In this document: positions 8,216 through 59,596 of the stretch, piece by piece
Layout of the letters: the number at the start of each line of letters is the position of its first letter
How positions within the stretch are numbered: position 1 is the stretch's first letter
Origin: a virus
Reading direction: 5' to 3' (one strand)
IMG/VR virus record: IMGVR_UViG_3300050498_000110
Coordinates: 11,927-75,926 of that record
Length of the DNA stretch: 64,000 bases
Program-made: the position numbers and the translations under genes
Notes under the pieces: model-generated
What the model saw: only the letters and a program-made list of their open reading frames with translations
Told to the model about the DNA's origin: nothing
The model's database searches: none

Positions 8216-9310
8216 ATGACCAACACCGACCAAGCCCCCATTGTCCAATCGAAGCCGCCGATTGTGGTGTTGCGCGAACGGCTCGAGGCGCGCGCGGGCG
8301 AGCTGAAAGCTGCGCTCGCCGAGATTCCGCCCGAGCGCTTCATCCGTGCCGTCATCACCGCGGCGCAGATCAATCCCGACATTCTCGCTTGCCAATGGAA
8401 CAGCGTTTGGCTCGCTTGCATGAAGGCGTGTCGGGATGGACTCCTACCCGACGGCGTCGAAGGCGCGATTGTTGCTTATGGCGACAAGGCAAACTGGATC
8501 CCTATGTACAGAGGACTTCTGCGCAAGTTTCAGGAATCCGGGTCGTTCCGATGGGTCGCCGCCGACGTGGTGCGCGAAGGCGAAGCGTTCGAATATTGGA
8601 TCAGCACCGACGGGCCGCACTTCAAGCATATCCCTGACGGCATTGAGACGGCGCCCATTGTCAAGGTCTATGCCATCGCCACCACCTTGCAAGGCGGTGT
8701 GTTCGTCGCCGTCATGTCGATGCCGGAAATCGACAAGATCAAAAAGATGAGCCGGGCCAAGCGCGAGGATGCGCCCTGGCGGATGTGGGAAACCGAGATG
8801 ATGAAAAAAACCGCGTTACGGCGGCTGGCCAAGATGCTGCCGTCGGGGCGCATCGTCGATGAGGATGACGACGACAACGATGATGTCAGGGAGGAATCCT
8901 CATTGCGAGCGGCGGCAGTAAGTGCGCCCCGAGAGCGCACGGCCGCCGCGGCGCTCGATCTGTTTGCAGGTTCTTCCGGTGAGTCCGTACAGTCGCCGCC
9001 GCATGATAGTCACCCCGACGCGGCGGCACCGGGAGAAGGCGACGGCGTGCAGCAATCGCAGCACCATGAGTCCGCCGGTGCGGCGCAGCTCGACCAACGA
9101 TCTGCCGGTCCGGCAACTGCCGCCGTCGCCAGTACGGATCCTGACCCGGTGACCGTCGCCTATCTGCGCGGCAAGGAAGCCAAGGCCGCCAAGCATGAGC
9201 GCAAGGCGCTGCCGGGGGAATATCGCTCGAGTGAGCGCGACAGCGAAGCCACCGCCTGGCTGGCGGGATATGACGGCAAGCCGAAGCCACAACATGGGGA
9301 AGCATCATGA
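8216..9310 (+). CDS. recT: RecT-family single-strand annealing protein
   Basis: ERFIRAVITA, GLLPDGVEGAIVAY, MYRGLL, PW...EMMKKTALRRLAKMLP. Confidence 0.93.
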   Translation: MTNTDQAPIVQSKPPIVVLRERLEARAGELKAALAEIPPERFIRAVITAAQINPDILACQWNSVWLACMKACRDGLLPDGVEGAIVAYGDKANWIPMYRGLLRKFQESGSFRWVAADVVREGEAFEYWISTDGPHFKHIPDGIETAPIVKVYAIATTLQGGVFVAVMSMPEIDKIKKMSRAKREDAPWRMWETEMMKKTALRRLAKMLPSGRIVDEDDDDNDDVREESSLRAAAVSAPRERTAAAALDLFAGSSGESVQSPPHDSHPDAAAPGEGDGVQQSQHHESAGAAQLDQRSAGPATAAVASTDPDPVTVAYLRGKEAKAAKHERKALPGEYRSSERDSEATAWLAGYDGKPKPQHGEAS

Positions 9311-9738
9311 CCGACAAACCGGAAGACTACGCCCAGCCCAAGCAGCGCGCGACGCAAGAGGCATTGCGTGCGGTCGAAGCCGCCGTCACCGACGCCAAGG
9401 CGGCCGAGAACGCGCTGCCGTCCGAGAACCGCACGGTGAGCGACTACGCGGCATTAGGCTCGCAGGCCATCACCAAATATTTCGAGGCCGCCGCCGTGCA
9501 TATGGAGCAAGCGGCAGCCGAGATCATGAAGGAAGCCGAGCATGCCCGCGACGAACTCATGATGCAGGCGGAAGACGTGCGCCATTCGGCACGCGCGCTC
9601 ACCGCCGCGGTCGAAGCGGCAGCGAGCCGGACCAAGCGGGCTGCGCTCGGTGCCACCGACATCCGCAAGGCATTCGCCGATGACGTCGCCCGCGAGCGCG
9701 CCGAGCACGAAGCCGCCCGCCAGCGAGCGGTGGGATGA
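9307..9738 (+). CDS. Coiled-coil hypothetical protein
   Basis: Ala/Glu-rich helical ORF, ATGA-coupled. Confidence 0.65.
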   Translation: MTDKPEDYAQPKQRATQEALRAVEAAVTDAKAAENALPSENRTVSDYAALGSQAITKYFEAAAVHMEQAAAEIMKEAEHARDELMMQAEDVRHSARALTAAVEAAASRTKRAALGATDIRKAFADDVARERAEHEAARQRAVG

Positions 9739-9789
9739 TGTCCGAGCTGGATTACAAGGCGCGCGCCGAACAGCTCTGGCAGGAGTTCG

Positions 9790-10035
9790 ATGAACGGAAT
9801 CGCGATGCCGTCTGACGCTTTCTGTATGTGGACGATCTACGACCATCCGAAGGATTATCCGACGGCATTCATCGCCCGCAAATTCCTCATCGGACGCGGT
9901 ACGGCGACGCCGACGACGACGATGTTGGCTAGCCCGGATCTCGAGGATTTGCGCGAAGCGATGCAGCGCATGGGCTTGACCTGTCTCACCCGCATGCCGG
10001 ATGACGACGCGGCCATTGTTGAAACCTGGATCTAG
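9790..10035 (+). CDS. Phage hypothetical protein
   Basis: WTIYDHPKDYP...IVETWI. Confidence 0.7.
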   Translation: MNGIAMPSDAFCMWTIYDHPKDYPTAFIARKFLIGRGTATPTTTMLASPDLEDLREAMQRMGLTCLTRMPDDDAAIVETWI

Positions 10036-11108: not shown

Positions 11109-11353
11109 CGAAATATCGCCCGCATCGCCATCTGCTTGAAGACTCAATGCGCGAGGTTGTCGAAGTTAATGACCTACCGCAGCTTGTCCGCCACATGCGC
11201 AGATCCGTGCAGTCCTGGTATCCACCCGATGAATTGCCGACAGTCGAGACTACCGAAGTTAAGCCCTACGTGTTCGATGATCGCATCGGTTGGGACACGT
11301 ACATCGTGCTGGTCAAAGGTTCGGCATGGGGATTCACTGATGGGCCGCTCTGA
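11105..11353 (+). CDS. Hypothetical protein
   Basis: 82-aa coupled ORF. Confidence 0.65.
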   Translation: MTKYRPHRHLLEDSMREVVEVNDLPQLVRHMRRSVQSWYPPDELPTVETTEVKPYVFDDRIGWDTYIVLVKGSAWGFTDGPL

Positions 11354-11490
11354 TAGCAACATACCGCGCCCACCGAAACATATATCAAAGCGCTGGCCGG
11401 GCGCCGGATCGGCTGGCGTGCGCAAGGCCATCATCACTAATCGCAACAAGAAAGTAAAAGTGACGCTGGCCTCTACAAAACGAGAAACCC

Positions 11491-11694
11491 ATGAACAAAC
11501 GTAGGATCGCAGAATTAGAGCGGATATGCGCCGAGCTATATCAAGTCATCGGCACGCTTGCGGACTACGCGGGAGTTTTTGACCACCCCGACGTGGTGCG
11601 GGCGATGGACAATGCGAGCAAGCTGCGCCTTGTCCATTCAGACTTGTTGCCATGGCCGCGTACTGCGCTTTCCGCCATGGCGCGCCAAGAATGA
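11491..11694 (+). CDS. Hypothetical protein
   Basis: 67-aa ORF, ATGA overlap. Confidence 0.6.
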   Translation: MNKRRIAELERICAELYQVIGTLADYAGVFDHPDVVRAMDNASKLRLVHSDLLPWPRTALSAMARQE

Positions 11695-11885
11695 CCCAAG
11701 AGCAAGCCATTGCCGTGCTCGAGGCCGAGCTGCACCGCCTGCGCCGGGTCGAGCACTATGCCAGGGTCGTGGTCGAAGCACATCACCGCGGCCGCCGCGG
11801 CACCATGACCGAAGCCGACGCCCGCGCCATGCTGCGCTTGCTCGATGCCCTGGCGCTGGCGCTCGAGTCCGATGGCCGACACTAG
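11691..11885 (+). CDS. Hypothetical protein
   Basis: MTQEQAIAVLEAEL..., ATGA-coupled. Confidence 0.55.
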   Translation: MTQEQAIAVLEAELHRLRRVEHYARVVVEAHHRGRRGTMTEADARAMLRLLDALALALESDGRH

Positions 11886-11949
11886 AATTGCGGGGATAAT
11901 TTCTAAATCGAAATTGTAGAATCGGAAAGTTCCGGCACTGTGCGACGCC

Positions 11950-12351
11950 ATGCGTTACGCCATCATCAACCCGAAAAAGCAAACCCTGCGCGCCATTGAC
12001 GCGTCGTCATTCGACGTCGCGCTGGACGTCGCCGAGCTGGCCGAAGTCGGCCGCGATCATGGCCTAGTCACCCGCCGGGTCGCCATCGTGGTCTATGAAT
12101 ACAGCCTGTATGTGCCGCCGGCCGAGCAACATTATTTCGCGCTCGAGGGCAAACTCTACGGCGGCAATGCCCTGCTCTATGGCGTCGGCGATGCTGGTGA
12201 AACCATCGACCTGACCGCCTGTCCGGAACCGACGTTTTTCAAATCTGCCGCCGACGTCGAAGCGGCGATCTATCTGGGGAAAGTCGAGCGTCCCGTTGTT
12301 GCACGTGACGAAAAGGTAGTTTGGAAATGGCCCGATCCGCAACCGGAATAG
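11950..12351 (+). CDS. Hypothetical protein
   Basis: 133-aa globular ORF. Confidence 0.7.
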   Translation: MRYAIINPKKQTLRAIDASSFDVALDVAELAEVGRDHGLVTRRVAIVVYEYSLYVPPAEQHYFALEGKLYGGNALLYGVGDAGETIDLTACPEPTFFKSAADVEAAIYLGKVERPVVARDEKVVWKWPDPQPE

Positions 12352-12593
12352 ATCATCAGCTTGTGCGCAAGCTGTCGCATAATTTGCGCCGCTATCTGAC
12401 GCCAGTGCTCACGCGCTGGCTGGCCGCCGCGCAAGCCGAAGGCGTCAACGACAAGACCACCAGCCTGGTGGTGATGAATGAAGCGATGGCATTGGCGGCG
12501 ACATTTCACACCGGCGACCCTAAGCTGTTCACCGACCTGGCAGCGCTGGCCATTGCCGACGCACGCACGCCGACTGGCACGACCACGCACTGA
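12321..12593 (+). CDS. Hypothetical protein
   Basis: In the operon; start uncertain. Confidence 0.5.
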   Translation: MEMARSATGIDHQLVRKLSHNLRRYLTPVLTRWLAAAQAEGVNDKTTSLVVMNEAMALAATFHTGDPKLFTDLAALAIADARTPTGTTTH

Positions 12594-14106: not shown

Positions 14107-14583
14107 ATGGCCAGGCGCCATAGGAAAGTGAAGTTGACGAAGGCCGAGCAAATCGCGGCCGACATCGGGAAGTGGCAGCGGGCGCAAGAGCGTGCGCTGA
14201 TCATGGAACGCAAGGCGGCGACCTTGCTCAAGCGGTCGGCGGTCGAGCTGGCCAGGCTGCACAAGCGACAGGCCAGGCTCGAGCATGAGGCGACCAGAGT
14301 CGAAACGACTCCCAAGCCGGTCGCCCTGGCGGTCGCGGTTCGGACCGACGGCACGGAAGAAATCGTGCCGGTCGCCGAGCCCCAGCCCGAGCCGGTCACC
14401 GAGCCGTCGCGCACCGAAGCCTGGCGCGAGCACCGGGCCGCGGTGAAACGAGCACGCAAGGCCAAGGCGCCGCCCGGCTCGGAGCGGGCAGCGCTGCACC
14501 ACACGCCGCCCCAGGCCACAGCGGAAGCCCGCCAGGCCAAGATGGAAGCGCTCGGCTTCCGACGCACCGGCAAGGCAAAATAA
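14107..14583 (+). CDS. Basic helical hypothetical protein
   Basis: GGAG RBS; followed by a terminator. Confidence 0.7.
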   Translation: MARRHRKVKLTKAEQIAADIGKWQRAQERALIMERKAATLLKRSAVELARLHKRQARLEHEATRVETTPKPVALAVAVRTDGTEEIVPVAEPQPEPVTEPSRTEAWREHRAAVKRARKAKAPPGSERAALHHTPPQATAEARQAKMEALGFRRTGKAK

Positions 14584-14635: not shown

Positions 14636-14720
14636 GTCTCCGCAACGGCTTCGCGAAGGCTTCGCGAAGTGTTCTTAATGCTTGTATATGGCGAGATATG
14701 CAGCTATATGTAGGGACAAT

Positions 14721-14800
14721 AGGCACGGCTTGGCTAGGCGAGGCAAGGCAAGGCGGGGCCGGACTTGGCGCGGCGGGGCTCGGCAAGGCAGGCAAGGCAA
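14721..14800 (+). repeat. NGGCN pentamer array 1 (about 14-16 units)
   Basis: aggca cggct tggct aggcg aggca aggca aggcg gggcc ggact tggcg cggcg gggct cggca aggca..., ends at the AAGGAG RBS. Confidence 0.9.
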
Positions 14801-14814
14801 AAGGAGTATTTGGA

Positions 14815-15231
14815 ATGAGCACCGTCATTGCATTTCCCGGCGCGCACACTCGCGCCCCGGTTCCACCAGTCTCGGCGGTCGATGAACTCGAGGCCGCCGA
14901 ACTGGCTTTGCTGCGCGCACGGCTGGCACAGATCCAGGCCGAGACGCGGCAACTCAACGCCATCTGGTTTACCTACTGTTTCCGCAAATTCTTATTTTGG
15001 GGCGTGCTGGCCTGGCTTTTGTATGCCCTGGCCAGCCCGGCCGCCGCCGAGTCGCGGTCGCTCTATGGGCCGAACGGCGGCTTTGTTGGCTCGAGCCTGG
15101 TGCGCGGCAACCAGACGACGTTCTATAGCGCGAGCGGTCGCTTTATCGGGTCCGAGATCCGGCACGGCAAGCAACGCGCGGTCTATGGTCCGGCCGGAAA
15201 CTTCGTCGGCTCAATCGTGACGCGACGATGA
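14815..15231 (+). CDS. Membrane protein with a C-terminal Y-x3-G-x-F-x-G repeat domain
   Basis: Hydrophobic segment then LYGPNGGFVG / FYSASGRFIG / VYGPAGNFVG. Confidence 0.7.
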   Translation: MSTVIAFPGAHTRAPVPPVSAVDELEAAELALLRARLAQIQAETRQLNAIWFTYCFRKFLFWGVLAWLLYALASPAAAESRSLYGPNGGFVGSSLVRGNQTTFYSASGRFIGSEIRHGKQRAVYGPAGNFVGSIVTRR

Positions 15232-17317: not shown

Positions 17318-17767
17318 ATGCTTTCACCACCAGAATTGGTATGTGCCGTGCGTGGCCGCGCCATCAAGTTCACCCCCGAACGGCTCGAGCAAATCAAGAA
17401 TTTGGTCGAGCGCGGAATGCGTCGAGAGGATATTGCCGCCACCATCGGCGCCACCGTCGGATCGCTGCAAGTGACATGCTCGCGTCTCGGGATTAGCCTG
17501 CGCCAGCCGAAGCGCACAAAGGTCGCCGCGGTGGACGATGACGAGCCGAAACGAGAAGGCAATGGCAAACCGGTCGGCGCACCGATCCCAATTGCACAGC
17601 GGCCGCAATTGGCATTGATCATTCACCGGGGCGACCGCGAGCGGCGCATTGAACTCGATCTGCCCGATGACGTGCTGACCCACATCGCGCTCGAGGCGGC
17701 CTTTAGCAATGAAGGCTTCGCCGCCGTCATCACACGGCTGATCATTGCCGGTCACAAGAAATCATAA
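17318..17767 (+). CDS. HTH protein with a GcrA-like N-terminal domain
   Basis: FTPERLEQIKNLVERGMRREDIAATIGATVGSLQVTCSRLGIS resembles the GcrA pattern WT.ER...L..L...G.SA..IA..LG......RLGL. Confidence 0.55.
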   Translation: MLSPPELVCAVRGRAIKFTPERLEQIKNLVERGMRREDIAATIGATVGSLQVTCSRLGISLRQPKRTKVAAVDDDEPKREGNGKPVGAPIPIAQRPQLALIIHRGDRERRIELDLPDDVLTHIALEAAFSNEGFAAVITRLIIAGHKKS

Positions 17768-22080: not shown

Positions 22081-22353
22081 TTGAAAGATTGGCCGCGCTA
22101 CGCCAAGGCGCTCGACATGCGGCTGGCGGGCGCGAAGTTAAATGACATCGGCCGCCAGCTCGGTGTTGGGCGAGAACGCGCGCGGCAGATGGTCGTGCTG
22201 GCCAAGGCGCAGCTCGCTTATCGCGTCTTCAAGGGTGTGCCGCGACCCCTGCCGAAACTATTATGGGATATCAACGCAGCCGCGGAAGCCCTCCGACTGC
22301 ACCAATCAAGCAACTCAACAACGCAAAGATCAGATAAATCACGGCAATCATGA
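22081..22353 (+). CDS. Sigma-70 region-4-like HTH protein
   Basis: DMRLAGAKLNDIGRQLGVGRERARQMV. Confidence 0.6.
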   Translation: MKDWPRYAKALDMRLAGAKLNDIGRQLGVGRERARQMVVLAKAQLAYRVFKGVPRPLPKLLWDINAAAEALRLHQSSNSTTQRSDKSRQS

Positions 22354-22573
22354 TCACCGCCCAGATCACGATATTGAGCGCGGCGGCGATGAAGCCGAGC
22401 AAAGTGGTCGGCGACGGGCCGGACCATGGTGCGCTGACCGGCGGCCAGAATGCGGTGCCGGGAGCGCCGCCACCAAGTGCCATGATCAGCAACCGCAGCA
22501 AAGCCACGATCGCGATCAGAACCACAACCCACACGGCCACGGCTTCCCAGAATTGCAAACTTAAACAGGCCAT
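22271..22573 (-). CDS. Two-TM membrane protein (holin-like candidate)
   Basis: GGAGG RBS before ATG 22573; two long hydrophobic helices; end of the lysis region. Confidence 0.65.
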   Translation of the reverse strand: MACLSLQFWEAVAVWVVVLIAIVALLRLLIMALGGGAPGTAFWPPVSAPWSGPSPTTLLGFIAAALNIVIWAVIMIAVIYLIFALLSCLIGAVGGLPRLR

Positions 22574-22597
22574 ATTAGCCTCCATTGGTTTATGACG

Positions 22598-22657
22598 CGG
22601 CTCGGCCAGGCAAGGCGCGGCAGGGTGAGGCAAGGCCAGGCGCGGCATGGCACGGTA
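22598..22657 (+). repeat. NGGCN pentamer array 2 (12 units) with adjacent hairpin at 22664-22697
   Basis: cggct cggcc aggca aggcg cggca gggtg aggca aggcc aggcg cggca tggca cggta; GCGGGGCGGGATT/AATCCCGTCCCGC stem. Confidence 0.9.
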
Positions 22658-22697
22658 AGGGAAGCGGGGCGGGATTCTTCACAAAATCCCGTCCCGC

Positions 22698-22826
22698 TCA
22701 TTCCTGATAGAAGAACGCGCCCCACACGAACAAGCCGACCACCACCGCGGCGAGCACGGCAAAGACGCCGAGCGCCCACCATGGCGGGCCGCTCCTTGAG
22801 CCACGTCTTCTTCTTTTGCATGTCAC
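22698..22826 (-). CDS. 42-aa single-TM protein downstream of the endolysin (not in track)
   Basis: GTG start overlapping the endolysin TGA; MTCKRRRRGSRSGPPWWALGVFAVLAAVVVGLFVWGAFFYQE. Confidence 0.55.
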   Translation of the reverse strand: MTCKRRRRGSRSGPPWWALGVFAVLAAVVVGLFVWGAFFYQE

Positions 22827-46344: not shown

Positions 46345-48171
46345 TTAGCGGAGCACTTCCTGATCTTGACCGCGCGAATACTGCAATCTGAACTGTACGA
46401 GCACGGCATATATACGTAACTGATTCACAAGATCTGGCGGCCATAGCACATTAAGCCTATTGGGGTTATTGGGGTCCCTTTCGACTATAAGGTGCTGCTT
46501 AAAGCTTTGGACGTCCTCCACTAAACCATTGAACTCATCTATCCTATATTGACTGACAAGCTCGGCCTTGACGATCTTTGGCGTGACGATCTTCTGCCCG
46601 ACACCGAAGCGCGTGCCATCGTTCGCGAGCTTGTGGCGCGGGAACTTGGTGGTGATGACATGGCGCTGATTGCGGATCAGCCTGGCGAGCGTGGCCATGG
46701 TGGTGACCAGCTCATAGGCATCGTCGCTCTGACTGTAGAGGTTGAGCTGATAAGTCGTGGTGTCGCGCATGATCATTGGCTGACCATCCGAGCCACGTTT
46801 CTGCGTCGACAGCCCGACACCCGACAGGGTGTTGAGTTCGGGCAGGATGAAAGACTCTTCGGGATGCGCCGACAGCACCTTGTTGAGCGAAAGCGTCTGC
46901 AACGGCCTGGCCGGATCGTTGGTCAGGGCGCGCGCAGCTTTCGCGGCGTAGGCCGCCGCCCATTCCCAAGTCGGCGTCGGCGACAATTCTTCGACCGCCA
47001 TCACTGCGAGCGGGCCGAAGTTCGGTGATACACCGCCCGCGGCCTGATCACCCCACACCACCAGGTCGGAGAAGTTGTCACGCCGGGCGCAGAACAGATG
47101 GCCATAGAGCTGGCGCATCCATCCCCAGCGGCCGGTGTCGGTAAATCCCCATTCCTGGCAAAAATCGAATAGCGTGTTGCTTTCGGTGTTGGGCAACGCG
47201 ACGTATTCGTATTCGTGCTCGCCGAGATTGGCGATGGCGTCGGCAAAGTCAGGTTCGCCGCCGCCGACCACGCCGCCGGTACCAGCGCCGAGATGCGGCG
47301 GCACGGCCATGGTCAGACCGGGAGGCAATTCCTGCCCACCCACCTTGCCGTAATAATTGAGCTGCAAGGTGATGTCGTTGCCGTTCTTGCCCGGTGTCTT
47401 GCACGTGATCGTCACGTCAGGACCAGCCGCCACTGCCGTGACTTGCAACGACGGTTCGTCATTGATGGCAAAGGCCAGCTCGGTCGCCATGGTGGCTGGC
47501 GTGTCGGTTGTGCCGACGGCAATGCCGACATGATGACCGCCGATATAGAGATGCACCATCCCGGCTTCGACCGGCGCCGTCTGAAACGTGATCTTGGCGG
47601 CGGCTTGCGTCGAGCCCGAAAGCGGCGCCACCGGTAGCGCCCAGATCTCGTGCGCGAAATTGTTGGCAAAGGCAGCGGCGAACATCGACGCGATTTCCGA
47701 GCCCTGACCATATTGGCGGTCGGCCTGCGCTTGCGTGCCGATGGGCTTGGGAATGTTCGGCGTGCCAATCCCGGCGCCTTGCGAGACGACGTCCGGCACC
47801 CACGTCAGATTGAACGTCGCGCCGATGCCTGCGCCGTTGGTGGTAACTTGCATCACCGGATTCACCGGCGGCGTCGCTTCGGCGGAAATGCTCCCGGCAT
47901 CGGTGATGGTGACGGTCGCCACGGCGCCAGTCGTGATGGTGGCCACGGTCAGCACAACGCCATTGTCCAGGTTGATCGTATTGCCGACCGCATAGCCGCT
48001 GCCACCGGCGGCGACGGTCGCGGTGGAAACCTTTTGCGTTGAGATGATCATGGTTCCGACGATCAGAATGGGTTGCCGGATGATCGGCAAGCCCGCCATC
48101 GACGGGTCGACTTCGGCCCAGAACAAAGGCATGCGCCATTGGGCGGGAATGGCATCAAAGCTGATAGGCAT
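46345..48171 (-). CDS. Tail sheath protein (Mu-like)
   Basis: DPARPLQTL, KFPRHKLANDG, ERDPNNPNRLNVLWPPDLVNQLR. Confidence 0.96.
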   Translation of the reverse strand: MPISFDAIPAQWRMPLFWAEVDPSMAGLPIIRQPILIVGTMIISTQKVSTATVAAGGSGYAVGNTINLDNGVVLTVATITTGAVATVTITDAGSISAEATPPVNPVMQVTTNGAGIGATFNLTWVPDVVSQGAGIGTPNIPKPIGTQAQADRQYGQGSEIASMFAAAFANNFAHEIWALPVAPLSGSTQAAAKITFQTAPVEAGMVHLYIGGHHVGIAVGTTDTPATMATELAFAINDEPSLQVTAVAAGPDVTITCKTPGKNGNDITLQLNYYGKVGGQELPPGLTMAVPPHLGAGTGGVVGGGEPDFADAIANLGEHEYEYVALPNTESNTLFDFCQEWGFTDTGRWGWMRQLYGHLFCARRDNFSDLVVWGDQAAGGVSPNFGPLAVMAVEELSPTPTWEWAAAYAAKAARALTNDPARPLQTLSLNKVLSAHPEESFILPELNTLSGVGLSTQKRGSDGQPMIMRDTTTYQLNLYSQSDDAYELVTTMATLARLIRNQRHVITTKFPRHKLANDGTRFGVGQKIVTPKIVKAELVSQYRIDEFNGLVEDVQSFKQHLIVERDPNNPNRLNVLWPPDLVNQLRIYAVLVQFRLQYSRGQDQEVLR

Positions 48172-51039: not shown

Positions 51040-52277
51040 TTGGTTTCCGTGTGGAATTGCTCGAACAGCTCGCGCAGCGGTAATGCCACTTCATCGCCGT
51101 CGGACATGACAGCAATTGCACGATAACTGGCGCGGTCGATTCGCCATTTGACGATGCGGGCGCCGGGCGGGCCTTGCTCGCCCTTCACGCCGCGCTCGCC
51201 AGGGCGGCCAGGCTCACCATCGCGGCCAGGCTTGCCCGCGCGGCCGACGCCGCAGAGAAGTTGCCAGCCCTCACCAGGACAAGGGCCGGGCGCGTCCTTC
51301 AACGCAACGAAGCTCGAACCGTTGACCATGACTAAGTCGAGCCGGGCATATTCGGCTTCGGCCTGGTGCAGCCCGCGCGGGTTGATGGCAGCACCGTCGC
51401 GACCGCCGACCGCCAAGCAGATCCAATCGGCGCTATGGCCGGGCCTGGTCGCGGTATCCTTGAGCGCCTGGTAGCAGGCGCCATCGCAGGCGAAGACGTC
51501 GCCTTCATAGGCGACCGTATCCGGCCGCCACAGCTTGCCCTTCGGCAGCTTGCCGCGTGGACCTTCCGCGCCGCGCTCACCGGCGACCCCGCGCTCGCCT
51601 TGCGGTCCGGACGGTCCCGGTGGTCCGGGTGGGCCGTCAACGCCAGGCTGGCCGGGCGGCCCTTGCTCACCGATGGCCCCGCGTTCGCCCTGCGGACCGG
51701 GCGGGCCGTTAGCACCGGGCTGACCGGATGGGCCTTGCTCGCCTATCGGCCCCGTTGCCCCTGCCGCGCCGGGCGCACCGGGCTCGCCGTCTTTGCCAGG
51801 CTGACCGGCTTCGCCAGGCTCGCCCTTTTCGCCGCGCTCGCCTTGATCGCCCTTATCGCCGATAGCGCCAGGCGGCCCCGCGGCGCCTGCTGGCCCTTGC
51901 TCGCCTTGCAGTCCTTGCTCGCCGACATCGCCTTTCTCTCCCTTGCTGCCGGGCTCGCCATTGATGCCAGGCGGCCCTGGTAGGCCGGGCGGCCCGCGCT
52001 CGCCGATTTCGCCAGGTTCGCCGGTGTCGCCTTTCTCACCGCGCTCGCCTGGCGCGCCGTCGCGCACGCGCGCCAGACAGTCATCCACGACACGCCGCAC
52101 TTCCTCGCGTAGCTCGGCGTTTTGCGCGCGCAGCTCGGCAATGGTGGCGCGCGCCTGCGCCTCGATTGTCTCGCGCTCGCGTGCCCATTGGCGGCGCTGC
52201 TCGGCAATGACCTGGCCGAGTGCGGCGCGAAGTTCGTCAAGCTCGCCGTCGAGCTGCAAAGCGTAAGCGTGATTCAT
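51036..52277 (-). CDS. Collagen-like head-associated protein
   Basis: Coiled-coil N-terminus, long uninterrupted G-X-Y run, then YEGD...Y.ALKDT and [19 protein letters not shown] modules. Confidence 0.85.
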
Positions 52278-54856
52278 TCTTCCTCGCTTTCGCCTTCATC
52301 GGATTCCCCGGCCTCGATGCGAGCCTTGACGGCATCAGAAATCTTTTTGGCCGCGGCGTCATCGCCGTCGTCGAGAATGTCCTGATGCAGCTCGGCGTCT
52401 TGGTAGTTGCCGTCGTCGTCGATGTAAAAGAATTCTTTCGACTTGGGATTTTTCGTTCCGGTCTTCGGCGGCAGGTCGTCGGCGCGCACGACGCGGAAAT
52501 GTTTTGCCGCAGATTTCTTTTTGCCGACATAGGCATCGAAGCGCGCCATCGATTCCTTGTCGCCGAAAACCAGCTTGCCCTCCCATGACGAGCCCAGCAA
52601 CATTTGCTTGCCAAATGCGCTATCGGCAATGGCCCATATTGCCTTCGGGTCGTTGCTCTTGAGCGCGCCGCCGATTTGAGATTGCACCATCGCCAGCACT
52701 TCGGGAGTTGATTTTCCCAGCCTGCGATTGATCGACTCGCGGATCTTGCTCCAAGCGCCTTTGGTTGGAACGTAGCCATATTTGGCCCAGGCATAGCCGC
52801 CGACGTCGAGATTGGCTTTTGTCTCAAGATGCTTGATGCCAAGGTCGCGGTAGGTCTGCACATTTCCTGCAAGCAACTTTTTGCCGACGCCCTTGGATTG
52901 CGCTTCCTTGCTGACTTCGAACAGATCCGAAGTTGCAACGTTGCGTTTGACATCTATCGAGCGCTGAAATTCGCCGACGGTTTTGCCGCCTTCCTTGAGC
53001 TTGCCGCTAATCTCTATAAGATGCTCGCGGGTCTGTTTGCCGCCCGGCTTGCTGGTGCCGACATTGAAGCTGCGCAGCGACACCGTCATGTCGCCTTGTG
53101 CATCGCCGAGAAATGATTTTTTGAAATCACCGGGATCCATTCCGACGCTATCGTTCCAGACTTCAAGAAACTCCTTTTCGTCCACAGTCGAAACTTTGAC
53201 GCCCTCTTGCTTGAACTTGCTGGTGCTTTCGACCTTGACCTTTTCCTTGCCGCCGCCCTTGCCGCCGCCGCTTGTCTCATCGCCACCGCTGCCCGGTTCA
53301 CTGCCGCACAATAAGCCCGTCTCGGGATCCTGGCAGAAGTCGCGCAGCACAATGCGCCGGTCATATTCATCCGCCAGTGCGAGCAAGCTGCGGCGCTCAC
53401 GCACGATGTTGGCCTTTTTCGGCGGCGGCTTGTCTTCGTCGTCGGACTCGAGCTTGGCGGGTTGCGGTTTGCCGGGCGGTGGCGCACCAGGTGCAGGCGC
53501 GGGCGGCGGATGCGGACCGGTCGAGAACGGCGACGGGCTGGTGGGGATGCCTGCCGCGGCAGACAGCGGCACGACCTGCTGTTGGACGCGCGGCTCATCG
53601 CCATGCGCGACTTTGGGATAGCTCTCGAGGTTGCGTGCTTCGTTAGGCGCCAGGATGCCGCCCTGCACGGCACGCGCCAGGCTTTCGATGCGATCCTTGA
53701 ACAGCGAGCGCAGCAACGCCGCGGTGTCCAGCTCAAGGTATTCGTCTGGCACGCCTTTGAGCTGGAACAGCACGCCAAAGGCTTCTTCGATATGCGAAAG
53801 ACAGAACCCGAGCCCGCTGCTGACCCATGCCTGGTAAAGCGCTTCCACCGATGAAAACGCGGTGCCGCGGCCGCTCTTGTCGGACACGCCGAGCACCGCC
53901 AGCGGAATGCGAAACGCGAGCGCGATCTGTTCGTCGCTCATCTGTTTCATTTCCGCGACTTGCGAATCTTTGCCCGGCGTCGACCACGGTTGCACTTTCA
54001 AGCCAGCGGTCAGAATCGGCGTGCCGCCTGGTCCGCAGCCGTCGAGCCCGGCGGCTTGCTCGCGCCAGCGCTGGCGCAGCTCATCGACTTGCTGGCGGTT
54101 GAGCACCAGATCGGTCGACAGGATGGCCGAAGGCCGCGCCTGGTTGAGATAGAACGCCGTCTGCTGTGCATTGATTGCCGAGCTGGTAGCAATCTCGGAC
54201 AGCGCAGCGGTCAGCGGCGTCTCGCCGACCAGCGGGAATGGTTGCCGGCGGCGGATGCAATGCAGGCGCACGTGCAGCACGTCGCGCATTGGCACCACCA
54301 GGCGCGCGTCCGGCGCCAGGCGCTTTTCAATCACATCGTTGCCGGCCAAGTGATAAAAAATCTCGCCGTTATAGGCGAGCTGCGGCTTGCACTGGAATGG
54401 ATCGAACATATGCAACGATTCAATCTCGAAGCGATTGTTGCGCAGCGCCAACGCATAGGCGTTGCCCTCGAGATAGACCGAGCGCGTCAGATTCAACATG
54501 AAATCTGAAATGCTCTGATAGTCATTCGGATGGCGCAGGATGCGCGATAGCGCCGAATTGGTCACGCGCTCGCGGCCGCCGTTGGCTTTGCTGCGCCAAT
54601 GGTCGCCTGGCAGCATGGCCACGGTCTGCGCGTAGGCCGATACGCATGCTTCCACCATGGCGGATTGGCTTGAGCCGCCATAGGGATCCATCCCGGTTTG
54701 CCACCAGTTGATGGGCGCCCCGTCAGGAAGCCAGCCGCCGGTGACGGGCAGATAGTACGGCCCCGACCGCGGCTCGCCTTCGACCGCGCGCAACACCGCA
54801 TTGGCATAGACATTTTGCGCCGCCGAGATGACGACGGGCGCAAGCGCCGTATCCAT
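52274..54856 (-). CDS. HK97-family portal protein with a C-terminal GNAT-like extension
   Basis: [31 protein letters not shown]; extension [10 protein letters not shown]...[15 protein letters not shown]. Confidence 0.92.
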
Positions 54857-57695: not shown

Positions 57696-58271
57696 CTAGA
57701 ATTGCGCGAACGCCAGCCAGGTTCCGGCAACGTGCGTGATCGGCCAGCCCGCGGCGCGCAATTGCTCGAGCGCGCCGGTCACTTCGACACCAGGGTTGCC
57801 GTAGTCGTGCCAGACGATGACGCCGCCCGGCTTGATCAGCTTGCCCGCGGTGTCGCTGTCGTGCATGACCGCGTCATAGGAATGGTCACCGTCGATAAAT
57901 ACGGCATCACAGGGCTCGAGCTGGTCGGCGACGTCGAGTGAGCCTTGCGGCCGCAGCACCAGGCGAAAGCGCGGGTCATGCGTTGCCCAGCGGCCGGGCT
58001 TGTGTTGCACTTCCGATTGCTGGCAGCGCAGCGTCGTCACAAAGTCGCTCGGCACGTCGACGCCGTAATAGCGCTCAATCGTCGGCACGTGCTCGAGTAC
58101 GCGTCGCGCGGTCAGACCGGATGCAATACCAATTTCGACCATGACCCGCGGCCGCACGCGCCGCAGCAACGCGACCAGCACGGCACATTCATTGGCGTTG
58201 AGATAGGCGCTAAACGGTCCGCGCAGCGCCGTCGGGCCGAACGACGCTCTCGCGACTTGCGGTAAGGCCAT
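57696..58271 (-). CDS. Class I SAM-dependent methyltransferase (Methyltransf_24-like)
   Basis: VEIGIASG, VFIDGDHSYDAV..D, PGGVIVWHDY. Confidence 0.9.
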   Translation of the reverse strand: MALPQVARASFGPTALRGPFSAYLNANECAVLVALLRRVRPRVMVEIGIASGLTARRVLEHVPTIERYYGVDVPSDFVTTLRCQQSEVQHKPGRWATHDPRFRLVLRPQGSLDVADQLEPCDAVFIDGDHSYDAVMHDSDTAGKLIKPGGVIVWHDYGNPGVEVTGALEQLRAAGWPITHVAGTWLAFAQF

Positions 58272-59466
58272 GCAGTGCGCTCGTCCAATCGCCCGGCGCC
58301 GCCTGGCGGCAGATCTTCATGCTCGGATACCACGGGGCCAGCCAGCGCCAGCTCGCCCAATGCGACAGCAGTAACGTTACCGGCCGCTCGAGCGCACCCG
58401 CCAGATGCGCGGCGGCGGTGTCGACCGTCACAATCTCATCGAGCGCCAGCATCAGCGACGCGCAGTCGGTGAAATCCTCGAATTCATGCGTGCGCACGCC
58501 GAGCGCTTGCGCCTCTTCGCGGCCCTGCGTCTGCACCGAATGCAGCTCGACATCTGGTAGCGCCGCCACCAGCTCAGCCAGCGGGATCGCGCGCGGATAA
58601 TCATCCTTGAACATTTGCCCGACCGACCAGGCGATGCCGACGCGGCGCTTGCCATTGAGCGACCAGGCGACGCTACGGCGCGGCGCTGACAGCTTGAAAT
58701 TGGGCAGCACGTCGCCCGGCGTGGCGACGCCGCAAAGATACGGCAACAGCAGGAATGGGCAGAAGTAATCGGCCGACGGGTCGTCAAGCACCGGCCCGAC
58801 TTGCGCCGCCAGCCGCTCAAGCGCGGGCGCGGTTGCCAGCCCCATCACCACGTCGAGCCCTTGCGCGCGCAGCCAGGCGACATAGCGCAGCGCCATGATG
58901 CTGTCGCCGAAGCCGTGCGCATGCAGCGCCAGCAGGCGCTTACCTGCCAACGGTTCACCGTGCCAGGGCCGCATTCCGGCCGCGAGCGCGGCCTTGCATT
59001 GCGGGCGCTGGAACGGCGGCATAGCCTCGCAATCAAAATATTCGCTAAAACCTTCGTGCCACCGTCCGACCGCCAGCAACATGAAAGCTCGGTTGAAGCG
59101 CGCGTGCACGGTCGGCGCGATGACAATGGCAGCATCAGCCTCCAACAGCGCTTCATGGTTCTGATTGCTGCGGAACAATGCAGCGGCGCGATTGAAGTGC
59201 ATCAGGTAGCGGTCGATGCTGACGCCGGGCCGTTGCTCAATCGCGCGATAGCCGACGGCTTCGCCGCTGCGCATGACCAGCAGCGGTTCGTTCGGCGGCT
59301 CGGGCTTGTGGCCATTGCGGCCGTGCACTTCGAGCAGCTCGCCGTGCTCGGTCAGCCCGCGCCAGCCGGTTTCGGTTACCTCACACGCGACGACAGGATC
59401 CAGGTCCGGCAAATCGCCGAATCCAGAAAAAATCGTTTTGCCCTTGTTTGTTTCCATGCAGATCAA
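58210..59466 (-). CDS. TPR-containing glycosyltransferase (GT9-like, GT-B fold)
   Basis: TPR-like HARFNRAFMLLAVG; GFGDSIM; VGIAWS; IVTVDTAAAHLAGAL; WRW...WYPSM...RQ..PGDW; start uncertain (59457 or 59466). Confidence 0.88.
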   Translation of the reverse strand: MICMETNKGKTIFSGFGDLPDLDPVVACEVTETGWRGLTEHGELLEVHGRNGHKPEPPNEPLLVMRSGEAVGYRAIEQRPGVSIDRYLMHFNRAAALFRSNQNHEALLEADAAIVIAPTVHARFNRAFMLLAVGRWHEGFSEYFDCEAMPPFQRPQCKAALAAGMRPWHGEPLAGKRLLALHAHGFGDSIMALRYVAWLRAQGLDVVMGLATAPALERLAAQVGPVLDDPSADYFCPFLLLPYLCGVATPGDVLPNFKLSAPRRSVAWSLNGKRRVGIAWSVGQMFKDDYPRAIPLAELVAALPDVELHSVQTQGREEAQALGVRTHEFEDFTDCASLMLALDEIVTVDTAAAHLAGALERPVTLLLSHWASWRWLAPWYPSMKICRQAAPGDWTSALHGLTASRESVVRPDGAARTV

Positions 59467-59485
59467 GCGCTACTTTATTGAAGTT

Positions 59486-59555
59486 AGGCAAGGCCCGGCG
59501 AGGCTAGGCATGGCGTGGCTCGGCCCGGCGGGGTTTGGCCTGGCATGGCAAGGCA
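59486..59555 (+). repeat. NGGCN pentamer array 3 (14 units) with adjacent hairpin at 59560-59591
   Basis: aggca aggcc cggcg aggct aggca tggcg tggct cggcc cggcg gggtt tggcc tggca tggca aggca; GGAAGGCCAG/CTGGCCTTCC stem. Confidence 0.9.
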
Positions 59556-59596
59556 AGGAGGAAGGCCAGGAGTTCGCGCTTCTGGCCTTCCGATTG

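Follow-up and report, generated by a model that had tools for sequence, protein, structure and literature searches.

VIPR is a CRISPR-like system of phages that was first described in 2026 and consists of a RAMP protein, Vipr, together with guide RNAs (vrRNAs) of 9-16 GGY/NN repeats (bioRxiv 10.64898/2026.04.26.720920). In the published mechanism, a polymer of Vipr protomers forms on the RNA and takes hold of every GGY, while the NN dinucleotides pair with double-stranded DNA and every third base is skipped, and transcription of the target is silenced (bioRxiv 10.64898/2026.04.26.720920; 10.64898/2026.04.26.720927). The base skipped by each unit is often the wobble base of a codon (bioRxiv 10.64898/2026.04.26.720920; 10.64898/2026.04.26.720927). 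Solo vrRNAs, for which no Vipr hit is present on the contig or none lies within 20 kb, have been described separately (bioRxiv 10.64898/2026.10.15.759431).

The DNA analysed here, called the window, was a stretch of 64,000 nucleotides corresponding to bases 11927-75926 of a viral record of 76,054 bp in total, with a genome GC content of 0.60 and a CheckV completeness of 100%. The sequence originated from rhizosphere metagenomes and the phage is uncultured; it was present in DNA contigs of such metagenomes only and in no RNA run listed. The structural module was of myovirus type, with sheath, portal, protease-capsid fusion and large terminase genes. Megablast and tblastn found no close relative of the genome among cultured phages, and a single-protein search with the major capsid protein returned one related locus. 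A GcrA-like regulator gene was found at window positions 17348-17767 and an integrase-family gene at 11276-12475 of the whole genome (L129), which together indicate a temperate phage of an alphaproteobacterium. Homologues of one phage gene were carried by Bradyrhizobium genomes, and on the strength of these homologues and the GcrA-like gene the host is probably alphaproteobacterial.

Three arrays of pentamers that had been picked out by a sequence-only reading of the window were located at about 14721-14800, 22594-22663 and 59486-59561 and are referred to here as arrays 1, 2 and 3 (Table 1). A search for GGC at 5-nt spacing (four units, at most one mismatch) produced 43 matches in the window compared to 2.4 expected, a number that was reached by none of 100 dinucleotide shuffles. 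A regex search of the whole 76,054-bp genome showed exactly three arrays, all on the plus strand. In register they comprised 13, 14 and 15 GGY-NN units respectively, which falls within the published range of 9-16. The near-invariant GG(C) core with variable flanking bases was also borne out, since the GGY core was nearly constant and the NN positions were free; beside the dominant GGC, only single GAC, GGT, GGG and GGA variants were present.

Table 1. Positions of the array genes, their neighbouring genes and the matching sites in the phage's own alleles (window coordinates).
Feature	Position	Strand	Description
Putative promoter of vrRNA-1	14681..14709	+	CTTGTA, 17 nt, CTATAT; -10 ends 12 nt before first GGC
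vrRNA-1 guide tract	14722..14786	+	13 GGY-NN units: 12 GGC, 1 GAC
Array 1 3' end	14787..14806	+	4-nt GGCA unit, two GGCAA units, AAGGAG
Gene next to array 1	14815..15231	+	138-aa protein with three TFYxxxGRFxGS-like repeats; homologues P0148-P0150
Own diverged target-like sites of array 1	15058-15095 and 15118-15155		Within gene 14815-15231
Putative promoter of vrRNA-2	22553..22581	+	TTGCAA, 17 nt, TAGCCT; -10 ends 12 nt before first unit
vrRNA-2 tract	22594..22663	+	14 units; guide core is the first 11 (22594-22648)
vrRNA-2 3' hairpin	22664..22697	+	14-bp GC-rich stem
Gene next to array 2	22271..22573	-	100-aa protein with two hydrophobic stretches, end of lysis cassette
Own target-like site of array 2	22542-22582
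Putative promoter of vrRNA-3	59448..59475	+	TTGTTT, 16 nt, CTACTT; -10 ends 11 nt before first GGC
vrRNA-3 tract	59487..59561	+	15 units; guide core is the first 10-12; ends GGCAA GGCAA GGAGG
vrRNA-3 3' hairpin	59560..59591	+	Terminator-like in scan, 14 pairs; fold z = -5.08
Gene next to array 3	58210..59457	-	415 aa, member of a large family in phages; Pfam hits to GT9 and TPR are faint
Own target-like site of array 3	59420-59460		Includes start codon of gene 58210-59457

The gene map confirmed that copy 1 is in a rightward block and that copies 2 and 3 are in the leftward lysis and structural block, so that array 1 points the same way as the genes on either side of it, and arrays 2 and 3 run antisense to their neighbours. 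The placement of each array in an intergenic gap, with a hairpin alongside and a gene start just downstream, was right in substance, apart from the role given to the hairpins of arrays 2 and 3. These had been taken to follow the stop codons of upstream genes and were found instead to follow the array in its own 5' to 3' direction, so they are better read as the ends of array transcripts than as terminators of leftward genes. The fold of positions 22590-22700 had a free energy of -55.6 kcal/mol (z = -4.25), and none of 200 shuffles was as stable. GC-rich hairpins also followed the solo arrays of four relatives (L041, L114, L223 and L234), where they were accompanied by a T run and lay in array orientation. 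Array 1 had no hairpin of its own in the fold test and runs into the ribosome-binding site of the next gene, for which the AAGGAG that closes the array doubles.

Hexamers resembling a -10 element ended 11-12 nt before the first unit at all three arrays, with a spacing of 16-17 nt. The CTATAT at vrRNA-1 matches the alphaproteobacterial -10 consensus, and the putative promoter of vrRNA-3 shares bases with the start codon of its leftward neighbour. A strict sigma-70 scan showed no promoter at any of the three arrays; the putative promoters are weak by-eye matches from which transcription is proposed. All three arrays ended with GGYAA-GGNAA and purines, and the last units of vrRNA-2 (GGTAA and GGGAA) were likewise tail-like. 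The terminal units were mostly unpaired in the best target alignments described below and are for this reason read as a tail. No likeness to the pseudoknot tail of the SUSP1 system was recognised in these 3' tails, which were compared with other arrays of this clade. An Rfam gathering scan of the window returned no family.

In the region upstream of array 1, an exact 11-bp direct repeat (GGCTTCGCGAA) was present in two copies at window positions 14647-14669, with the palindrome TTCGCGAA inside. The repeat is placed downstream of the terminator of gene 14107-14583 and ahead of the putative array 1 promoter, where it may serve as an operator or form a second hairpin.

The sequence-only reading had named no characterised function for such arrays, which is superseded by the VIPR guide RNA role now described in the 2026 preprints. 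A genomic link to Vipr was found in a survey of IMG/VR. Runs of seven GGCNN units occurred there in at least 120 loci, with a GC content ranging at least from 0.37 to 0.71 and usually several arrays per contig. A single family of ORFs of about 200 aa was encoded within 2.5 kb of the arrays in 66 of the 120 loci listed, and an HMM of the family matched 82 of the 120. One member of the family and a clade profile matched PDB 36pp, the 'SUSP1 Vipr protein' (E = 3.8e-7 and 3.6e-6). Among the 120 loci listed, arrays were co-directional with the adjacent vipr in a ratio of 305:7, and the arrays within a locus were on one strand in 83 of 84 cases. The co-direction indicates that the GGC strand is the sense strand of the RNA. 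The three tracts are thus most likely stand-alone genes for vrRNAs, with transcription and Vipr binding predicted, and arrays 2 and 3 would simply be small genes inserted antisense into leftward operons. Candidates considered for the repeats before the VIPR evidence superseded them were a coding pentapeptide repeat, which was dropped as TAG stops occur inside the units, and a TRAP-like RNA-binding array, a Chi-like site, primase sites and G-quadruplexes.

The survey also bears on the proposal that the arrays are a double-stranded DNA signal tied to the polarity of the genome, with half-turn phasing, such as a lattice of bound protein, a cue for replication, packaging or recombination, or a G-rich structure. 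The three copies do share one strand, a period of 5 bp corresponds to half a turn of the helix, and GG every 5 nt could in principle give two-tetrad G-quadruplexes. The sharing of one strand by three copies has a probability of 0.25, as the caution that it could be chance had anticipated, and the orientation in the IMG/VR loci was not random but followed the vipr transcription unit and not genome polarity, which disfavours a DNA signal of this kind. Close relatives without arrays argue against a conserved genome signal, and a lattice would not predict that the NN positions match genes of other phages under a defined code, as is the case here. This explanation is therefore extremely improbable.

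The genome itself showed no vipr. None was found by an HMM of 66 Vipr members against six-frame ORFs of the whole genome, by hhalign or by a clade profile at E values up to 10, and tblastx with the L075 locus, including its vipr, found no counterpart of that gene. With a CheckV completeness of 100%, the lack of a detectable vipr argues that the arrays are solo guides that would need Vipr in trans. A complete VIPR system, in which the three RNAs directly arm a highly divergent Vipr-like RAMP protein of the phage's own, is unlikely. Vipr proteins are very diverse, their discoverers relied on structure searches, and about 40 small proteins of the phage have no family assignment; two of these (228 and 206 aa) were modelled with AlphaFold and gave pLDDT values of 36 and 54, too low for a judgement on the fold, one being all-helical and the other poorly all-beta. 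Against such a protein stand the negative results with the 66 diverse Viprs, the clade profile, hhalign and tblastx, and the same models recognise the L075 Vipr easily. Solo arrays also occur without any Vipr in 80 head-module loci, 924 kb in total, from the family with the 415-aa gene.

Possible sources of the protein were found among relatives and bacteria. In the relative L075, positions 8678-9810 hold a vipr followed by a staggered array of about seven guides between an integrase homologue and a small gene; the blocks of this array have about 11 units each and are shifted against one another by a 4-nt GGCA. Both flanking genes have homologues in this phage, where they are adjacent and 175 bp apart (own genome, 11101-11276); the gap contained no array and no vipr remnant. 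The L075-type Vipr clade was represented by 61 bacterial genome loci and included Bradyrhizobium lablabi SZCCT0422 and a Bradyrhizobium MAG. In B. lablabi (L147; NZ_JAFCJK010000003.1, about 121-128 kb) a staggered GGCNN array was located about 490 bp downstream of Vipr, and its end resembled that of array 1 (GGCAA-GGCA-GGCA motif). The 4-nt GGCA punctuation of array 1 likewise parts the guides in the staggered vipr-side arrays of L075 and L147. Vipr would probably be donated by a relative infecting the same cell, or by a prophage already resident there, of the L075/Bradyrhizobium type. None of the contigs that bear the targets described below could be shown to carry a vipr.

For the target search, a threshold of at least 80% NN match under the 1-nt-skip code was used as in the VIPR papers. 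The genome itself had no target at this level for any of the three guides, and the best own sites fell in or at the start of the neighbouring genes. For array 1, the sole two genome positions with at least 18/26 matches were both in gene 14815-15231 and in wobble register. The best own site of array 3 was a single top genome position (19/28) at the start of gene 58210-59457, also in wobble register, while the site of array 2 at the start of gene 22271-22573 was one of six top positions with 17/28 (17/22 over the core). Higher scores were found in the rival alleles, here the fetched homologues of the three neighbouring genes with available DNA. Array 3 matched L121 at 25/28 (89%), with 20/20 for the first ten units over the first codons, followed by L131 with an exact core, L123 with 22 and L122 with 20. 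Array 2 matched L125 and L130 at 23/28 (82%), with 22/22 for the first eleven units over codons 1-11 (MACLSLAFWEA), and L128, L127 and L124 with 22, 21 and 21. Array 1 matched two internal repeats of the neighbour homologue in L126 at 21/26 (81%), by which it clears the 80% rule only narrowly; L126 supplied the sole rival allele for this array. Each guide thus spells alleles of its neighbouring gene in related phages that do not have the insertion, and the phage's own allele is altered at that place.

Several controls were applied to these matches. Readings with a skip of 0, 2 or 3 nt gave background scores (15-18), and shuffled guides equalled the observed score in 0-2 of 2000 trials. When the guides were compared with 120 unrelated IMG/VR loci and the 61 bacterial Vipr loci, only background scores were obtained, and the L075 guides gave only background scores on this genome. 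The exact 11-unit core of array 3 (units 2-12) had no match in IMG/VR, the core of array 1 had no exact match in IMG/VR, and the core of array 2 had no match in genome contigs. With up to three mismatches, the cores of arrays 2 and 3 had no match in the fragmentary relatives L075, L041 and L114.

These matches also bear on whether the arrays are sponges or decoys for the Vipr of a rival (anti-VIPR) or decaying remnants, with the match to the neighbour being a historical trace. Satellite solo vrRNAs are reported to redirect Vipr to decoy sites (bioRxiv 10.64898/2026.10.15.759431), the phage has no vipr of its own, and one array each of L223 and L234 had no clear target. The core matches to living rival alleles are nevertheless exact (20/20 and 22/22) and occur under the 1-nt-skip rule only, which argues that the guides are kept under selection, and the GGY cores are nearly intact. 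A sponge or remnant origin is distinctly unlikely as the explanation, even though sponging and retargeting may coexist.

The own alleles were further compared with those of relatives. As the wobble base is skipped, a match can be broken only by a switch between six-fold codons or by an amino-acid change. At the array 2 site, codons 5-7 of the own allele read AGT TTG CAA, compared to TCN CTN and GCN or GGA in four relatives, with Ser recoded from TCN to AGT and Leu from CTN to TTG. At codon positions 1-2, this site was the most or joint-most diverged 11-codon window in comparisons with the two closest relatives. The own-allele change at codons 6-7 creates TTGCAA, which we infer to be the -35 element of the array 2 promoter. 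At array 3, the N-terminus of the own 415-aa protein was METNKGKTIFSGF, while the closest relatives have ..KPGETIYSGF. A cluster of rare six-fold codons was also observed at the 3' end of the sheath gene (window 46345-46570, minus strand), where AGR made up four of seven Arg codons (genome average 9%), TTA was used twice for Leu (genome 3.6%) and one Ser was AGT. The patch could be a possible escape scar from a VIPR guide, given that the wobble base is skipped by VIPR and six-fold switches are the only silent match-breakers.

No array was found at any of the homologous junctions of the relatives that were fetched. At these junctions the genes abut or overlap or, for array 1, are separated by an array-free spacer, so the arrays look like insertions. 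The suggestion of a mobile micro-element therefore holds in spirit, with the arrays in gaps of about 125-230 bp that carry no array in the fetched close relatives. Array 2 was spanned unchanged by one metagenome contig (X5, 22209-22692) among the strongly fragmented DNA contigs of four runs. The 100-aa gene beside array 2 is at the end of the lysis cassette in this phage and beside a head-module glycosyltransferase-like gene in some relatives (L130 and P0127 contigs); its differing location suggests that it moves between modules.

The array-free relatives are also relevant to a role of the arrays as leaders that act in cis on the mRNA of the neighbouring gene and adjust its translation, its stability or the loading of Rho, with array 1 being G-rich and arrays 2 and 3 C-rich in that transcript. 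Each array does lie directly upstream of a gene start, and array 1 ends in a ribosome-binding site. The transcribed sense of copy 1 nevertheless differs from that of copies 2 and 3, the same genes are expressed by relatives without an array, and a leader has no need for NN positions that spell foreign alleles, which makes this role very improbable.

The layout of guide beside target recurred in relatives of the phage but is not a general property of vipr-linked arrays. Among 292 guides from the IMG/VR loci listed, most of them vipr-linked, a match to a flanking gene was no commoner than chance (five at p ≤ 0.01), and the clearest of them was in the related phage L114. There, a solo array in antisense orientation matched its own neighbour gene at 18/22 (82%) and the homologue in this phage at 17/22; a self-match of 82% fits poorly with an immune own allele. 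For the two L041 arrays, neither this genome nor the L041 locus itself gave a significant match. In the 80 head-module loci of the family that carries the 415-aa gene, no Vipr was found and four solo arrays were present, all antisense to head genes. One array of L234 precedes its homologue of the 415-aa gene by 124 bp. Of 79 other loci, 10 matched this guide at the 5' end of the gene with at least 20/24, compared to a self score of 18/24. A second array (15060-15129) lies 80 bp upstream of the portal gene, and 8 of 79 loci had a match to its guide in the 5' region of the portal gene, with a self score of 16/24, which is background level. This portal-side guide also matched the present phage at window positions 54714-54748 (minus strand) in the portal gene (52274-54856) with 20/24 and in frame, so that the phage is a predicted target as well as a predicted shooter. 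One L223 array and one L234 array had no clear target. In total, six cases of the guide-beside-target layout were counted, of which this phage accounts for three, L234 for two and L114 for one.

Overall, these results are best accounted for if each array is a small, separately inserted VIPR guide RNA gene beside the gene whose rival alleles it spells, to which we assign a probability of roughly 0.78. Vipr would be supplied in trans by a co-infecting relative or a resident prophage. The guide of array 1 would be directed to the internal repeat of the 138-aa protein in rivals, that of array 2 to codons 1-11 of the rivals' 100-aa membrane protein and that of array 3 to the first codons of the rivals' 415-aa head-module glycosyltransferase-like protein. 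During mixed infection, the guides would turn Vipr on the rivals' copies of the three genes, while the own alleles, with a match of less than 80%, would escape. Tight linkage of a guide and the own immune allele would keep recombinants from self-targeting, and this linkage is presumably the reason for the adjacency.

A further step, put forward tentatively and as possible rather than probable, is that the solo vrRNA genes are selfish cassettes of a guide plus an immune allele, an RNA-guided counterpart of homing endonucleases. Such a cassette would insert beside a gene whose cassette-free alleles are recognised by its guide, and rivals would be excluded or silenced through borrowed Vipr. It would then spread with the linked resistant allele by recombination, or by true homing if a nuclease-linked type of Vipr were involved.

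What is new here is that guides are scattered in essential operons, each beside the gene whose foreign alleles it spells. If the proposed reading is true, the rule of a guide next to an immune allele would explain how self-silencing is avoided in freely recombining phages, guide cassettes may spread as homing endonucleases do, and odd patches of six-fold codon switches in phage genes would become readable as escape scars from wobble-skipping guides. The data also provide concrete guide and target pairs for a non-enterobacterial VIPR clade, for which the cultured Bradyrhizobium L147 would be a practical source of the protein.

The closest described counterparts are the solo vrRNAs of VIPR-null phages and satellites, which are alike in having GGY-NN arrays with no vipr on the contig and a Vipr presumed to be borrowed in trans, and in following the NN-x target rule at 80% or more with self scores below non-self scores (bioRxiv 10.64898/2026.10.15.759431). 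They differ in location, as the published solo vrRNAs occur one or two at a time at the deleted vipr-vap1 locus of SUSP1-like phages of Enterobacteriaceae (bioRxiv 10.64898/2026.10.15.759431), whereas the soil phage studied here has three separate insertions, in its early, lysis and head operons. They also differ in their targets, which in the published cases are vipr genes, other vrRNAs, satellites and host repeats (bioRxiv 10.64898/2026.10.15.759431) and here are the rival alleles of the neighbouring gene. Guide-target adjacency is not described in the three VIPR preprints (bioRxiv 10.64898/2026.04.26.720920; 10.64898/2026.04.26.720927; 10.64898/2026.10.15.759431), and no mention of homing was found in the last of these. 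Staggered vrRNA arrays (bioRxiv 10.64898/2026.04.26.720920, fig. S18) share the layout of L075 and L147 and the GGCAA-GGCA-GGCA end of array 1. Unlike those systems, the guides of this phage stand alone with their own putative promoters, with hairpins at arrays 2 and 3, and with no vipr or accessory gene.

The Type II VIPR of Escherichia phage SUSP1 (PDB 36pp; bioRxiv 10.64898/2026.04.26.720927) is similar in its repeat grammar, the 1-nt-skip code and the skipping of wobble bases. Its target sites are also at the 5' ends of genes (bioRxiv 10.64898/2026.04.26.720927), a position that suits transcriptional silencing. It differs in that its Vipr is a remote match to the related clade (E about 1e-6 over the C-terminal part), the present arrays have no recognisable pseudoknot tail, and the host clade and GC content are not the same.

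The free-standing homing endonucleases of T-even phages, known for intronless homing and marker exclusion, are selfish cassettes in a gap beside a conserved gene. They recognise the neighbouring allele of cassette-free relatives, while their own neighbouring allele is resistant. Recognition in the present case would differ in being RNA-guided and in using a borrowed protein, and characterised VIPRs silence rather than cut, with no nuclease known for this clade. The likeness of the three array genes to T-even homing endonucleases is one of mode of working and not of family membership.
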